From an uncultured Alphaproteobacteria bacterium (GTDB taxonomy: Bacteria; Pseudomonadota; Alphaproteobacteria; Rhizobiales; Rhizobiaceae), in assembly GCA_929200335.1 (NCBI GenBank), contig CAKMZG010000010.1:1-25949 (forward strand): DNA of 25,949 bases. The letters run 5' to 3'. The first letter of the stretch is position 1; each line of letters opens with the position of its first letter. Positions 1 through 5,139 of the stretch are shown in pieces. A model generated the notes under the pieces. That model was not told the origin of the DNA and ran no database searches. It saw only the letters and a program-made list of their open reading frames with translations. The position numbers and the translations under genes are program-made.

Positions 1-1414
1 ATCTAATCTCAAAACTTGCCCCACCCATATTATTTCCGCTCTCAGCTTGTGTTAGTAATTTAATATCACCACCGTGTGCTTCAATAATTTCAGCCGCAAT
101 AGCCAAACCAAGTCCTGTTCCCCCTGATTTGGTTGAGCCTTCAAATGCAGTGAATAGTTTTTCACGTGCTTTTTCTGGAACACCGCGACCAGAATCAGTC
201 AATTGAATTGCAATATCATTTTCATTGCTTTGCGCGGTTAAGACCAAACGCATTTCTTTTAAGTCTGCACTATTCTCACGCATAGCCTGAACACTGTTGC
301 GAGCAAGATTCATTAAAACCCTAAACAATTGCTCGTGGTCACAATAAACCTGCACCGCCTTTGATACTTCATTTTGCCATAAAATATCCTTGGCTTGATC
401 TAAGCCTAGCAACTCAGCAACATTTTCACCGATTTCGTGCAGAGAAACTTGTTTCTTTTGATCTGGGCTTGCCTCTTTTGCCTTACCATATTCCAGCACA
501 TTTTGAGTATAGTCGGTAGCGCGTTCAATGGTTGCAACCAATTTCGGCGCAAAGCTCTGCACCTTTGGATCATCAACTGCATTAAGGCGATCAGAAAACA
601 AAAGGGCTGAGGTTAAAATATTACGCATATCATGGTTGATTTTAGAAACAGCTAGACCAAGATTTGCTAGGCGTTTCTTCTCACCCAACACCGTTTGCAA
701 TTCGCTTTGCATATCACGTAGATGGTTTTGTGCTATGCCAATTTCATCATCGCGATAGGTTTTTGGCATAACTAAATTGGGGGTCTCTGGATCTTGAGAA
801 AATTGCGATATATTATGAGTGATGCGCTGTATTGGGCGGATGATTAACCAACGCATGGACATATAAATTAAGAGTGCTGTAACAACAGCAATAATTAGAG
901 ATAACAAAATAATATTTCTGGCATATACCCACATTGCATCCCGCAATTTTGCGGCATCTAAAACCAGTTCTAATTTGCCCGGCAGAATCTTCATATTGCT
1001 AATAGCACGGATAAATGTATCATCTTCTATGAAGAGATACTTCACCGAACTTAAAATAGAGCCCAAGCGCAATATTCCATCAAAATCAACCTCTTCTTGG
1101 ATTTCTGATGGCATATCTGTTGTAAGAACCAAATTCTTATGATCCCCTTGAAAAACGATAATGGCACGCGCATCAGTTGTCTTTAATACATTCATCTGCG
1201 CCACATCGCTCGGCATGAGATTTGGGTTATCGCTCAACATGACCACGGCAGCCTCTGCCGTATTCATTTTATCTTCCAGCCATGTATTTCTAAAATTGGC
1301 GATAGAGGGTATAAGCACAACAATTTCAACAAGCATCACAAAGAGAATTGTTAAAATTAGAAGTTTGCCAGACAGACCAGCTAAAACGCCTTTAGGTTCA
1401 GTTATTTTACCCAT
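1..1414 (-). CDS. Membrane-bound sensor histidine kinase (2 TM, HAMP, HisKA, HATPase_c); 3' end runs off the left edge
   Basis: Not in the ORF track; translated by hand from ATG at 1414 and open for 471 codons to the edge. MGKITEPKGVLAGLSGKLLILTILFVMLVEIVVLIPSIANFR (TM1), TM2 IILLSLIIAVVTALLIY, HAMP IRPIQRIT...DDEIG, H-box INHDMRNIL, N-box LMNLARNS, G1 DSGRGVP, G2 GGTGLGLAIA. Confidence 0.93.
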   Translation of the reverse strand, partial: MGKITEPKGVLAGLSGKLLILTILFVMLVEIVVLIPSIANFRNTWLEDKMNTAEAAVVMLSDNPNLMPSDVAQMNVLKTTDARAIIVFQGDHKNLVLTTDMPSEIQEEVDFDGILRLGSILSSVKYLFIEDDTFIRAISNMKILPGKLELVLDAAKLRDAMWVYARNIILLSLIIAVVTALLIYMSMRWLIIRPIQRITHNISQFSQDPETPNLVMPKTYRDDEIGIAQNHLRDMQSELQTVLGEKKRLANLGLAVSKINHDMRNILTSALLFSDRLNAVDDPKVQSFAPKLVATIERATDYTQNVLEYGKAKEASPDQKKQVSLHEIGENVAELLGLDQAKDILWQNEVSKAVQVYCDHEQLFRVLMNLARNSVQAMRENSADLKEMRLVLTAQSNENDIAIQLTDSGRGVPEKAREKLFTAFEGSTKSGGTGLGLAIAAEIIEAHGGDIKLLTQAESGNNMGGASFEIR

Positions 1415-1456: not shown

Positions 1457-2911
1457 TTAACCGAATATTCGCAAAAATCCAAGCAACTTACGTAATATTG
1501 GTGATTTAGGAGCATCCGCATAATAGGTAATAGCAGCACGCTTACCTATTTCAGTCATTGTCGGATAAGGCGATACAAAACCTGCAATATCTTTAACCTT
1601 CATACCTTTTGAGATTGCTAAAGCCCACATATTAATCATTTCGCCGGCATTTTGACCAACAATCGAGACCCCTTCAATCTTACCGTTCTTACGGGTGATC
1701 ATTTTAATCAGGCCATCGGTTTTCTTTTCTGCCTGCGCGCGATCATTTTCTGAATAATCCCACCGTAAAATTTTGATGTTATCGCCTAAGACTTTTTTCG
1801 CTGTTTCTTCCGTATGGCCAATATGAGCGATCTCTGGATCTGTATAAGTTGCCCATGGAATCATATGGGTATTTTCACGCGCTGGCAGACGAAACAAAAT
1901 TGCTCTTACCACAAGTCCCGCTTGATATCCCGCCATATGGGTAAATTGCAAGCTACCTGCAACATCGCCAATGGCATAGACGCGCTTATTGGAGGTGCGC
2001 ATTTTATCGCTCACCTTGATACCTCGTCGGGAATATTCAATGCCCGCAGCCTCTAGTCCAAGGCCATTTACATTTGCAGCACGCCCCGTAGCAACCAGCA
2101 AATGTGATCCCTCAATAGCGCGTTCATTTGGAGCTTCATCAGTACCAATGTTCAATGTTACAAGAACACCATCGCCTTGTTTAGCAACTTTAACAACTTT
2201 AGCACCTTCTAGAATTTCTACGCCATCCTCACGGATTTTCTTCAAAGCAATTGCCGTTAGCTCAGGATCATCTTTACCCAAAGCTTTAAAGCCTTCCACA
2301 ACAGTTACCTCAGCACCAAGACGGCGATGAGCTTGCGCCAATTCCATACCGATAGGACCACCACCAATAACAATTAACTTTTTCGGCGCCTCTTTCATAT
2401 CAAAGATAACTTCATTGGTAAGATAATTCACCTCATCCAATCCTGAAATTGGTGGCACAAAAGGCGATGAGCCTGTTGAGATGACAAAACGACGGGCTTT
2501 TATCTCATATTCAATACCGTCTTTACCCGTTGAAACAACCGTATTGGCATCTTTAAATTGGCCAGCACCTTCAATGACATTGACCCCTAAACCTTCAAAG
2601 CGCTCTACAGAATCATGAGGTGCAATAGTGCCGATAACACTATGGATATGATCATGAACTTTGCCAAAATCGACTTTTGGCTCACCAGCATCAATGCCAA
2701 ATTTCTTTGCGTCTTGGATGGATTTAGCATATTTTGCTGCGGCAATAATAGCTTTGGATGGCACGCAACCGTAATTCAAACAATCGCCACCCATTTTACC
2801 CTTTTCAAGCAATACAACATCAACACCAAAAGCGGCCGCTGCGGCTGCAACAGATAGCCCTCCAGAACCAGCACCAATAATGCAAATATCAGGCGTTAAT
2901 TTTACTGTCAT
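1457..2911 (-). CDS. Class I pyridine nucleotide-disulfide oxidoreductase, MerA/dihydrolipoamide dehydrogenase-like, substrate unknown
   Basis: FAD motif IIGAGSGG, redox disulfide GGDCLNYGCVPSK, second Rossmann motif GGGPIGME, ATGR, AIGDV, interface motif PYPTMTE. No lipoyl or NmerA domain and no C-terminal Cys pair. ATG 2911 preferred because GGAA lies upstream; 2923 is the alternative start. Confidence 0.9.
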   Translation of the reverse strand: MTVKLTPDICIIGAGSGGLSVAAAAAAFGVDVVLLEKGKMGGDCLNYGCVPSKAIIAAAKYAKSIQDAKKFGIDAGEPKVDFGKVHDHIHSVIGTIAPHDSVERFEGLGVNVIEGAGQFKDANTVVSTGKDGIEYEIKARRFVISTGSSPFVPPISGLDEVNYLTNEVIFDMKEAPKKLIVIGGGPIGMELAQAHRRLGAEVTVVEGFKALGKDDPELTAIALKKIREDGVEILEGAKVVKVAKQGDGVLVTLNIGTDEAPNERAIEGSHLLVATGRAANVNGLGLEAAGIEYSRRGIKVSDKMRTSNKRVYAIGDVAGSLQFTHMAGYQAGLVVRAILFRLPARENTHMIPWATYTDPEIAHIGHTEETAKKVLGDNIKILRWDYSENDRAQAEKKTDGLIKMITRKNGKIEGVSIVGQNAGEMINMWALAISKGMKVKDIAGFVSPYPTMTEIGKRAAITYYADAPKSPILRKLLGFLRIFG

Positions 2912-3044: not shown

Positions 3045-3821
3045 CTATTGAGCCTTGCGCTTCTTCCATGCCTTTAGAACAATTGGAATGAGTGCAACGA
3101 AAATCAATGCAATCATAGCACCTATAATTTCTGGCGTAATTGCAGCTTTTAAATCAATAGAACAAGTTCCTGCAGCCCCACATCCTGGATTAGCAGCTTC
3201 TTGAGCAGCAATGATACTATCCAACCCCTCGCCCAAGAAAGCATATGCAAATGTTCCCGGTGCAATGCCGATAAATGTTGCTGCGAAATAAGACGGCAAC
3301 CGCACATTAAACAGCGCTGGTGCAATATTGATCAACCAAAATGGGAATACAGGCACCAAACGCAAGAATAAGAGGTAATTAAAGGCATCCTCTTTAAAGC
3401 CATCAGCTAGCTTAGCAACGCTTTTGCCTGCTTTTTCTTGTAATATACTGCCAAAAGATGTTCGTGCAGCCATAAAGATAATGGATGCCCCAATGGTTGC
3501 TGCCAAAATGGTTATAGAACCACCAATCAACCAACCGAAGAAAAAACCACCCGCTATGGTAAGCAACGATGCCCCAGGAAAAGATAGAGCCACTGCCACA
3601 ATATAAAGACCAGCAAAGGTAAGCAAAGATATAAAGAGATTCTCATTAACATAACTGGCTAAATCAGCACGGTGCTGAATCAATGCAGAGAGCGTAAAAA
3701 ACTTATGCCAGCCCATAGCATAGGCAAAACCCATTAAGCCTAGGATCACAGCAAGAGGTGTAAAGCGTTTCATCAAAGAAACTTTTGTTTTTGGCTCGAT
3801 GTGTTGCGCTTCTTTTTCCAT
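3045..3821 (-). CDS. TVP38/TMEM64 (VTT domain, DedA superfamily) membrane protein
   Basis: Re-entrant motifs ALSFPGASLLTIAGGFFFG and LLFLRLVPVFPFWLIN, then GIAPGT and several hydrophobic helices. ATG 3821 preferred because GGAAG lies upstream; 3875, 3857 and 3836 are alternatives. Confidence 0.9.
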   Translation of the reverse strand: MEKEAQHIEPKTKVSLMKRFTPLAVILGLMGFAYAMGWHKFFTLSALIQHRADLASYVNENLFISLLTFAGLYIVAVALSFPGASLLTIAGGFFFGWLIGGSITILAATIGASIIFMAARTSFGSILQEKAGKSVAKLADGFKEDAFNYLLFLRLVPVFPFWLINIAPALFNVRLPSYFAATFIGIAPGTFAYAFLGEGLDSIIAAQEAANPGCGAAGTCSIDLKAAITPEIIGAMIALIFVALIPIVLKAWKKRKAQ

Positions 3822-3864
3822 ATTTAAGTCTTCCATTTGTGTAGAACCTGTAACCATTTGCGAA

Positions 3865-4746
3865 TTATTTTGCATCGTTCAAGCTCCAATCATAAGCATA
3901 GCTTGAAATCTTAGCATCCTTGATTCGTGCTGCAAGCTCAGGTTTAGCATATTTAAGCCAATGTTTTTTAAGTCTTTTTGACCCACCAAAATCACCCGCA
4001 TACCATTTGTAGATTTTTGACGCTGTTATCTTACCATTTTTAACCGAAATGCCACGCGGGTGATTAACATATGATACCGCGCTTTGTTTCATTAAACCAA
4101 AACGATTAGCGCCTGTATAAGCCCTATTCATCAGATTTGGGCAGGAAAAGGATGCGCAATTTAAAGCATAATGAGACAAAGCGGTTTTAAAGATAGGACG
4201 AATGATTTTATGCTCAATTTCATCCAAGCTCAGATTTTCACCTGAAACTTTCAAAATATCCTTTGCCCAAGGCCCAGAACCAAAGAAAGAGCCTCCAAGA
4301 TTAATTTTCTTTATGGATTTGATTGGATATTTAGAAGCTACTAGCTCCAACGTCTTGGCATTATATAGATTAATCCAATAAGCATGCGCCTCACCTTTTT
4401 TCAAAGCTTTGGCATCTACACCCTGTAGGGTTTTGAGGTAATTGCGAAGCGCACTTAATCCGCCGGACTTCAACCCCTTATAATTAACCCGATTATAACC
4501 ATCGTTGCCCACTTTAACGTATTTTCTCACAAGCTTATCATATGCACTATGATCAACAGATCCTGTCCCTTTTGGGGCAAACGTCTTAGCCAGAGAAGCT
4601 GCATCTGCTTGCCCTGTAGCAATGATAAAAAAGGCTGCAGATAGCGTAAAACCTAATGCAAGTGTTAAGCCTATTTTAGACTTATTATTAATAGGCTTAA
4701 CACTTACTAACGCCCCATCCTGTGTATTTTTAAATTTGTTATTCAT
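3865..4746 (-). CDS. DUF547-family exported protein
   Basis: Signal-like segment (KSK...LALGFTLSAAFFIIATGQADA) and family-like motifs VNY, AYWINLYNA, LSLDEIEH, HYALNCASFSCP, SKIYKWYAGDF, YDWSLN. Start at 4746 or 4761. Confidence 0.85.
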   Translation of the reverse strand: MNNKFKNTQDGALVSVKPINNKSKIGLTLALGFTLSAAFFIIATGQADAASLAKTFAPKGTGSVDHSAYDKLVRKYVKVGNDGYNRVNYKGLKSGGLSALRNYLKTLQGVDAKALKKGEAHAYWINLYNAKTLELVASKYPIKSIKKINLGGSFFGSGPWAKDILKVSGENLSLDEIEHKIIRPIFKTALSHYALNCASFSCPNLMNRAYTGANRFGLMKQSAVSYVNHPRGISVKNGKITASKIYKWYAGDFGGSKRLKKHWLKYAKPELAARIKDAKISSYAYDWSLNDAK

Positions 4747-4972: not shown

Positions 4973-5001
4973 TTGACTTAAAGCCTTCAGCTGACTATAG
5001 A
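4973..5001 (+). promoter_or_regulatory. Putative sigma70 promoter of the rpmH-rnpA-yidC operon
   Basis: TTGACT (4973-4978)-N17-TATAGA (4996-5001), a near-consensus match with canonical spacing. Confidence 0.7.
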
Positions 5002-5139
5002 TGCACGAAATTTGATGGCAAATGTCGATCTCATAATTGTGTAGTATAAGAATTGCATATTATAGGAATCGCGTTATAAAGCTGATCTCACATTAAGAAT
5101 ATTCAAACAAGAAGGCCCGCCTAAGCGTGGGAAGATACT

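Follow-up and report, generated by a model that had tools for sequence, protein, structure and literature searches.

A DedA-linked, MerA-like flavoprotein reductase of an uncultured alphaproteobacterium, set apart from mercuric reductase and dihydrolipoamide dehydrogenase

We examined a MerA-like reductase gene in a 25,949-nucleotide stretch of DNA from an uncultured alphaproteobacterium of the Rhizobiaceae (assembly GCA_929200335.1, contig CAKMZG010000010.1, positions 1 to 25,949; hereafter the window). Judged from its sequence, the encoded protein is the local orthologue of Sinorhizobium meliloti "MerA1" (50% identity), a class I flavoprotein disulfide reductase of a DedA-linked clade, and it is neither an Hg(II) reductase nor the E3 component (dihydrolipoamide dehydrogenase, Lpd) of a 2-oxoacid dehydrogenase. 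We consider it reasonably probable that the protein is a membrane-docked dithiol reductase that uses reduced nicotinamide adenine dinucleotide (NADH) and acts with DedA, a membrane protein encoded next to it, on a non-classical acceptor. The original prediction for this DNA had placed the reductase at 1457-2911; a gene is indeed present there, with the correction that it lies on the minus strand, the plus-strand translation being full of stops. Its features are as follows.

1457..2911, minus strand: reductase gene (Pyr_redox_2 and Pyr_redox_dim), 484 amino acids from the Met at 2911, stop codon TAA at 1457-1459
2923, minus strand: alternative in-frame ATG, giving 488 amino acids, four residues longer
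2765..2782, minus strand: C48-LNYG-C53 in GGDCLNYGCVPSK, the redox-active disulfide, which matches the CxxxxC of Lpd, Gor, MerA and RclA in the alignment
2600..2617, minus strand: family-specific motif HDSVER, residues 103-108, at the place where MerA has a substrate-pocket Tyr
2294..2308, minus strand: VTVVE, residues 206-210, end of the second Rossmann beta-strand, with an Lpd-like E210
1550..1570, minus strand: interface motif PYPTMTE, residues 452-458, in which Tyr453 replaces the catalytic His
1460..1501, minus strand: C-terminal basic amphipathic helix PILRKLLGFLRIFG, residues 475-488, putatively membrane-targeting (from hydrophobic moment, predicted helix and family tails)

Results

Fold and active-site signature

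Residue numbering counts from the ATG at 2923 (protein P0001, 488 amino acids), so that the ATG at 2911 is Met5; homologue starts and the database call of 484 amino acids agree with Met5 as the start. With two GxGxxG motifs, a CxxxxC motif and both Pfam domains (Pyr_redox_2, E 1e-59; Pyr_redox_dim, E 9e-28), the protein is a class I pyridine nucleotide-disulfide oxidoreductase. An AlphaFold2 model, built from an alignment with 36 relatives, has a predicted local distance difference test score (pLDDT) of 94.5 and a predicted template modelling score of 0.91. In Foldseek, it matches Lpd and MerA structures with template modelling (TM) scores of 0.87-0.90, the top matches being Lpd structures. 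Since all of these solved structures match at no more than 34% identity, none represents the reductase's own group.

The only cysteines in the reductase are C14, C48 and C53, and it therefore lacks a C-terminal Cys pair. As the GxGxxG motif that binds flavin adenine dinucleotide (FAD) begins at residue 17, there is no N-terminal NmerA domain. When the protein is aligned with reference sequences from annotated records, Tyr453 of the interface motif falls on the His of Escherichia coli Lpd, Gor and RclA and of the same genome's LpdA and Gor, and on the Tyr of MerA and SthA. This Tyr is kept in 127 of 144 family representatives and in 98% of the members with both redox cysteines. The position of E210 is Glu in Lpd and RclA, Ala in MerA, and Val/Tyr followed by Arg in Gor; among the 144 representatives it is Glu in 83 and Asp in 20. 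The motif around E210 predicts NADH rather than NADPH as the cofactor.

Positions whose conservation is specific to the family include HDSxER (103-108), G113 and D394. Within the HDSxER motif, D104, S105 and R108 are invariant in 36 sequences, and S105 replaces the second pocket Tyr of MerA in an alignment to the MerA structure 5x1y. By homology, this motif would line the substrate pocket.

The C-terminus is the other hallmark of the family. Residues 475-485 have the top helical hydrophobic moment of the protein (0.72, 99.6th percentile), and AlphaFold2 places a helix at 475-487 with pLDDT of about 91. The tail is basic and amphipathic throughout the family, its last 16 residues having a mean net charge of +3.8, and most full-length family matches carry PYPTxxE together with a basic tail of the type LVRFLRRFG. 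In NDH-2, sulfide:quinone oxidoreductase (SQR) and proteins with MinD-type helices, a short basic amphipathic C-terminal helix docks a soluble nucleotide-binding protein on the cytoplasmic face of the membrane. These are other flavoprotein subfamilies or unrelated proteins, and the likeness is limited to the anchoring device. We infer that the conserved tail docks the reductase at the membrane. The original prediction had already noted the Tyr in place of the catalytic His (as in MerA), the acidic residue ending the second Rossmann strand, the lack of a C-terminal vicinal Cys pair and of NmerA, and the amphipathic C-terminus, and each of these points is upheld by the alignments, the cysteine inventory and the helix analysis above.

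A clade separate from MerA, Lpd, RclA, SthA and Gor

Among the best 150 matches of an exhaustive search over 1.84 billion representatives, the weakest, at 340 bits, is still far above MerA or Lpd. A family member (E<=1e-90) occurs in 160 of 301 sampled alphaproteobacterial genomes, and outside the alphaproteobacteria we find records named Tatlockia, an Edwardsiella plasmid and Thermodesulfobacteriota. The family thus spans Legionellales, Enterobacterales plasmids and Thermodesulfobacteriota besides alphaproteobacteria.

The family forms a well-supported clade of its own. A FastTree inference with 156 rows places the window protein in one clade (support 99) with 140 cluster representatives, with S. 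meliloti MerA1 and with a protein from the Edwardsiella plasmid in which DedA and the reductase are fused. In an IQ-TREE inference with 77 rows (55 from the family, 13 MerA), the family lies on one side of a branch with a Shimodaira-Hasegawa-like approximate likelihood ratio test (SH-aLRT) value of 100; the corresponding values are 100 for the MerA clade, 99 for the RclA-like clade and 90 for the Lpd clade, the order among the clades not being settled by the tree.

Consistent with this placement, the reductase scores under every NCBIfam equivalog cut-off: 372.3 bits versus 454.45 for the MerA model TIGR02053, 355.4 versus 408.8 for the Lpd model TIGR01350, 195 versus 740 and 212 versus 650 for the RclA/hypothiocyanous acid (HOSCN) reductase models NF040477 and NF041853, and 244 versus 465 for the SthA model. 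Its best-scoring model is the generic NF004991 (PRK06370.1-3), at 446.9 versus a cut-off of 620, with a match that extends to position 504 of 509. The same genome (2.58 Mb, 311 contigs) encodes four proteins with the dimerisation domain, namely two LpdA (579 and 581 bits versus 409), one Gor (673 versus 606) and this reductase. No MerA was found in this genome at E<=1e-130, a threshold at which 27 of the 301 sampled alphaproteobacterial genomes have one; in many of the sampled genomes, a true MerA coexists with a family member encoded at another locus.

MerA (TIGR02053; Tn501/Tn21 and the Lysinibacillus 5x1y) resembles the window protein in its class I fold, CxxxxC motif, interface Tyr and C-terminal extension past the dimerisation domain, and also in being a cytoplasmic reductase paired with a membrane protein. 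However, all 13 bona fide MerA sequences examined have a C-terminal Cys pair (SCCAG, SCCA or SCCAV), whereas the window protein has neither this pair nor a mer operon, carries S105 in place of the second pocket Tyr, has an NADH-type rather than an NADPH-type determinant, ends in a basic amphipathic helix instead of a metal-carrying arm, and falls in a separate clade. The alphaproteobacterial MerA proteins above the TIGR02053 cut-off (L205-L213) are mostly 473-501 amino acids long and without NmerA, yet all have the C-terminal Cys pair; it is therefore the absence of the pair that discriminates, and not the absence of NmerA.

Lpd (TIGR01350) shares the fold, the Glu at the NAD-specificity position and CxxxxC, but the window protein has Tyr for the His of the His-Glu dyad (HPTxxE), an extra C-terminal helix, a score below the cut-off and no dehydrogenase operon. 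RclA, the HOSCN reductase named "MerA" and PRK06370-type proteins are likewise orphan MerA-like reductases that lack a C-terminal Cys pair, and they act on small oxidants or metals. RclA and two "FAD-containing oxidoreductases" that we compared differ from the window protein in that they keep the His, belong to another clade (support 99), and have no amphipathic tail and no DedA partner.

The original prediction had described a distinct reductase that fits neither MerA nor Lpd, likely to be mis-annotated, with no mer or 2-oxoacid dehydrogenase gene nearby. The family's own clade in both trees and the sub-cut-off scores substantiate the distinctness. The Pfam-scanned open reading frames (ORFs) of the window include rnpA, yidC, yihA, pncA, argB, a two-component pair, ilvE, proC, lgt, prs, L25 and pth, and none among them is a mer gene (merR/T/P) or a 2-oxoacid dehydrogenase gene, as predicted. 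The expected mis-annotation is evident from the database names of relatives, which range from "FAD-dependent oxidoreductase" to "dihydrolipoyl dehydrogenase family protein", "E3 component" and merA1 / mercuric reductase.

Genomic context of the reductase

The reductase gene lies among genes on the same strand.

3045..3875, minus strand: DedA/VTT (TVP38-type) membrane protein, 276 amino acids, VTT_dom, directly upstream of the reductase
2..1414, minus strand: sensor histidine kinase gene, truncated at the edge of the window and starting 42 nt after the reductase stop; the protein has a periplasmic domain and two transmembrane helices
3865..4761, minus strand: DUF547 protein with an N-terminal signal/anchor and a CxxxxC motif, HYALNCASFSCPN, overlapping the DedA start by 11 nt
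4994..5021, minus strand: best sigma-70-like candidate, TTGCCA-16-TATAGT (10/12), upstream of DUF547, a consensus match only

We surveyed two samples of loci. The first, of 80 alphaproteobacterial loci, was chosen by a pattern that contains the Cys motif and is thus uninformative on Cys loss; a second sample of 100 loci, unbiased for the Cys motif, was therefore drawn from the 301-genome search. A same-strand DedA gene adjoins the reductase in 74 of 80 loci in the first sample and in 73 of 100 in the second (59 upstream, 14 downstream). The window DedA is 41% identical to the TVP38/TMEM64 protein of S. meliloti.

Fusions of the two proteins also occur: P0128, P0139 (from a Tatlockia metagenome-assembled genome, MAG) and P0174, at 47-52% identity, and the Edwardsiella plasmid protein are scattered inside the clade. 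The Tatlockia fusion is 711 amino acids long. Todor et al. 2023 report this reductase as the commonest fusion of COG0398-type DedA and offer no function (PMC10127716). In the TVP38/TMEM64-FAD oxidoreductase fusions, the reductase halves belong to the same clade (36-52% identity) and carry PYPTxxE; the three metagenomic fusions keep the basic LxRxL-type tail, and the tail of the Edwardsiella fusion is basic but divergent. They differ from the window, where the two halves are separate genes 121 nt apart. Since the fusions place the reductase after the DedA C-terminus, the reductase would be cytoplasmic and at the membrane. Candidate alphaproteobacterial fusions, suggested by open frames of 700-800 amino acids, were rejected: in none of the 100 alphaproteobacterial loci is a DedA domain in frame with the reductase. 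A predicted complex of the reductase with DedA scored 0.00, which counts neither for nor against binding.

A kinase gene follows directly downstream on the same strand in 69 of 80 loci in the first sample and 49 of 100 in the second. In the S. meliloti record, yihA, yidC and rpmH (divergent) are followed by genes for the TVP38/TMEM64 protein, the NAD(P)/FAD oxidoreductase and a 1521-bp kinase; in the literature, SMc01718 (TVP38), merA1 and SMc01716 are one putative operon, and SMc01716 (1,521 bp) is cenK. The window kinase is 43% identical over 441 amino acids to the S. meliloti kinase at the same position. Because of this position and identity, and because the 1521-bp length and SMc numbering match the published cenK, the window kinase is probably orthologous to CenK, the kinase that senses for the CenKR envelope system. 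It is an orphan here, the window ending inside its gene, which is why no response regulator is visible.

The CenK two-component system is essential in Caulobacter. In one Caulobacterales MAG locus (L059), the DedA gene lies upstream of cenK; in another (L060), the contig stops just upstream of the reductase. Transposon data are reported to show COG0398 DedA to be essential in Caulobacter and Dinoroseobacter (PMC10127716), and if the Caulobacter DedA gene precedes cenK, this essentiality could be a polar effect. In Rhodobacter sphaeroides, where cenK is RSP_1056, the adjacent numbers RSP_1057 and RSP_1058 are "Detoxification" genes (PMC3441632). By their position in Table 1 of that study they appear to fall in the RpoHII-specific and RpoHI-specific regulons. 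They may be the reductase and DedA genes, and we do not use them as evidence.

Joint loss of the redox cysteines and DedA

Not all members of the family retain the redox-active disulfide. One or both cysteines are missing in 32 of the 144 representatives, while both dinucleotide-binding motifs and the tail are kept; among sampled alphaproteobacterial orthologues, the pair is kept in 99 of 100. In the Cys-less members, K57, D104 and T328 decay as well (D104 is present in 19% of them versus 92% of Cys-bearing members), and Tyr453 drops from 98% to 53%. As these four residues decay along with the cysteines, we take them to belong to the dithiol chemistry.

The loci of seven Cys-less proteins share a distinctive context. 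Six have no adjacent DedA gene and the seventh has a 120-amino-acid VTT remnant, while the kinase is directly downstream in all seven and five lie opposite rnpA-yidC or rpmH-rnpA-yidC. The single Cys-less locus of the 100-locus sample follows the same pattern, with no intact adjacent DedA and the kinase kept. An intact adjacent DedA is thus present at 0 of 8 Cys-less versus 73 of 99 Cys-bearing loci (Fisher p = 6e-5, uncorrected for ancestry). We read the joint loss of cysteines and DedA as a sign that the dithiol serves the DedA partnership. The Cys-less orthologues, which retain the tail and both GxGxxG motifs, have the look of "pseudo-reductases" under selection, and we read them as evidence that something else, namely the tail and the nucleotide-binding body, may be kept for a reason tied to the kinase or the operon. 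The Cys-less positional orthologues at L096, L098, L099, L201, L202, L203 and L125 have no DedA gene and a kinase directly downstream, and they mostly lie opposite rpmH-rnpA-yidC.

Accessory features of the locus

DUF547 is a minority accessory member, present in 14 of 100 and 23 of 148 loci. Its motif HYAVNCASxGCPNL is near-invariant, and VTT-DUF547 fusions exist (P0301 and P0302). For an AlphaFold2 model of the window's DUF547 protein (pLDDT 84), Foldseek found nothing at E<=0.001, and the best VIA Z, of 5.2, is to generic helical proteins. Both cysteines of the window DedA, which form a CX5C pair (residues 232-238, positions 3162-3182), lie in an insertion that is present in 29 of 74 partner DedA proteins; this insertion is commoner at loci with a DUF547 gene (odds ratio 4.1; p = 0.005, with no correction, also none for ancestry). 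The DedA loop and DUF547 may have been added on the periplasmic side in particular lineages. A DsbD/CcdA-like thiol relay through the DedA cysteines was rejected as a general mechanism: besides the loop being limited to those 29 of 74 proteins, 17 of the 74 partners have no cysteine at all, and S. meliloti DedA has no CX5-12C loop.

Two features of the non-coding sequence are worth recording. Within the 121-nt spacer, directly before the reductase start, there is a perfect 19-bp tandem duplication (unit GTTTTAAAGCTTCACCATA on the plus strand, 1.9 copies, 2929-2965), which could have arisen recently or could serve a regulator as a direct-repeat site. The sigma-70-like site at 4994..5021 is a possible operon promoter, although the region holds as many such sites as shuffled sequence. 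Finally, one record, P0298 (listed as Symbiodinium microadriaticum merA, 1318 amino acids), strings together DUF547, VTT, reductase and a kinase ATPase domain in the gene order of the window; in that assembly, a gene model of the eukaryotic kind has most likely been drawn across a bacterial operon.

Discussion

In the mechanism that we favour, and hold to be somewhat better than an even prospect, the reductase would be a homodimer in which the C48/C53 dithiol receives electrons, via FAD, from NADH, the cofactor predicted from the Lpd-like Glu210. Its basic amphipathic helix at the C-terminus would hold it on the cytoplasmic face of the inner membrane beside DedA, where it would reduce an acceptor that is carried by DedA or made accessible by it at the membrane. 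Because a MerA-like Tyr takes the place of the acid-base His and the HDSxER motif tracks the cysteines, a small thiophilic or membrane-borne compound would be a likelier acceptor than a soluble disulfide. In alphaproteobacteria, the reductase-DedA pair probably shares an operon with CenK, and this probable link to an envelope sensor kinase points to a role in envelope or membrane homeostasis.

Several observations weigh against this mechanism. Dithiol chemistry is not universal in the family, given the 32 of 144 representatives that lack one or both cysteines, and the count of Cys/DedA co-loss, being uncorrected for shared ancestry, may reflect only two or three events. DedA is not adjacent in 27 of 100 loci, and a 121-nt spacer separates the two genes in the window. 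The tail persists in DedA fusions, which would have no need of a separate membrane tether, and it may thus have another role: it may reach the partner subunit's active site, as the tails of MerA and thioredoxin reductase do, or bind another protein. More generally, cofactor preference, membrane binding and acceptor are for every family member deduced from sequence.

The names under which relatives are deposited suggest two other functions, both of which we regard as very improbable. A true mercuric reductase, as the rhizobial name merA1 implies, would fit the interface Tyr and the best PDB sequence match of the protein (MerA 5x1y, 2e-78), and merA1 transcripts of Ensifer medicae rise with HgCl2 in one strain (PMC7840509). 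That study, in Front Plant Sci, treats the chromosomal merA1 (Smed_0084), by its name the counterpart of S. meliloti merA1, as a mercuric reductase from expression data alone. Against an Hg(II) reductase stand the missing C-terminal Cys pair, which 13 of 13 bona fide MerA proteins have, the TIGR02053 score of 372 versus 454, the separate clade (support 100), the predicted NADH rather than NADPH, the lack of mer genes among the window ORFs, and a housekeeping position beside rnpA-yidC, while many sampled genomes hold a true MerA elsewhere. A third dihydrolipoamide dehydrogenase is just as hard to credit, even though Glu210 is Lpd-like, Lpd structures head the Foldseek list and relatives bear the names "dihydrolipoyl dehydrogenase family protein" or "E3 component": the catalytic His is a Tyr, the score is 355 versus a cut-off of 409, the clade is separate, there is no E1/E2 context, and the genome already has two LpdA well over the cut-off.

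Two further readings, neither of which excludes the dithiol reductase that we favour, are unlikely but deserve more weight than the deposited names. The protein could be a flavin-level oxidoreductase passing electrons from NADH to quinone or another lipophilic acceptor, anchored at its C-terminus like NDH-2 or SQR; the Cys pair would then be auxiliary, and DedA would have no part in catalysis. The amphipathic helix is a family hallmark, the 22% of representatives without cysteines keep both dinucleotide-binding motifs, and class I reductases such as Lpd are known from textbooks to show diaphorase/quinone reductase side activities; however, the Cys-less members also lose the flavin-side Lys57 and the pocket residues D104 and T328 and so resemble pseudoenzymes, 99 of 100 alphaproteobacterial orthologues keep the Cys pair, and the DedA fusions argue that DedA matters. 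Alternatively, and with a similarly small chance, the main role in alphaproteobacteria could be regulatory, the protein being an accessory that binds NAD(H)/FAD and informs CenK of the redox state of the cytoplasm or the membrane. The frequency of a same-strand kinase directly downstream in both samples favours such a role, as do the seven Cys-less representatives and L125, which keep the kinase, the tail and the nucleotide-binding motifs while DedA is gone or reduced to a 120-amino-acid remnant. Yet the family and its fusions occur outside the alphaproteobacteria, with no CenK-like kinase annotated in the one such locus examined, and a common promoter together with inherited synteny next to rnpA-yidC may be all that lies behind the adjacency. 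In R. sphaeroides, expression of cenK is reported not to depend on CenKR, a result that is silent on a link at the protein level.

A reading that joins these elements, to which we assign a low probability, is that the reductase couples a DedA lipid/solute transporter to CenK. In full form, it would use NADH and its dithiol on a membrane-borne, DedA-supplied acceptor, and its conserved tail and nucleotide-binding body would give CenK a cytoplasmic redox input. The latter role would survive as a "pseudo-reductase" where cysteines and DedA are lost together. If this coupling were true, the flavoprotein disulfide reductase fold would serve as an accessory of a two-component system that is essential in Caulobacter, and there would be a connection between COG0398 DedA proteins and envelope signalling.

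The fold and superfamily of this reductase are textbook knowledge and its DedA fusion is in print; as far as we have searched, the definition of the clade by its signature, the cenK synteny and the joint loss of cysteines and DedA are new. Our literature search for a characterised family member turned up expression data and a domain-fusion remark, and no biochemistry. The family is routinely mislabelled, and at least one rhizobial Hg-tolerance study accepts the merA1 label at face value.

DedA proteins are now regarded as lipid transporters, and we know of no substrate assigned to the TVP38-type bacterial branch. As this reductase is the commonest fusion partner of TVP38-type DedA, identifying its acceptor would give a biochemical handle on that branch. 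The position upstream of cenK and the joint loss of cysteines and DedA with the kinase kept provide two testable hypotheses that link membrane redox chemistry to the CenKR pathway.

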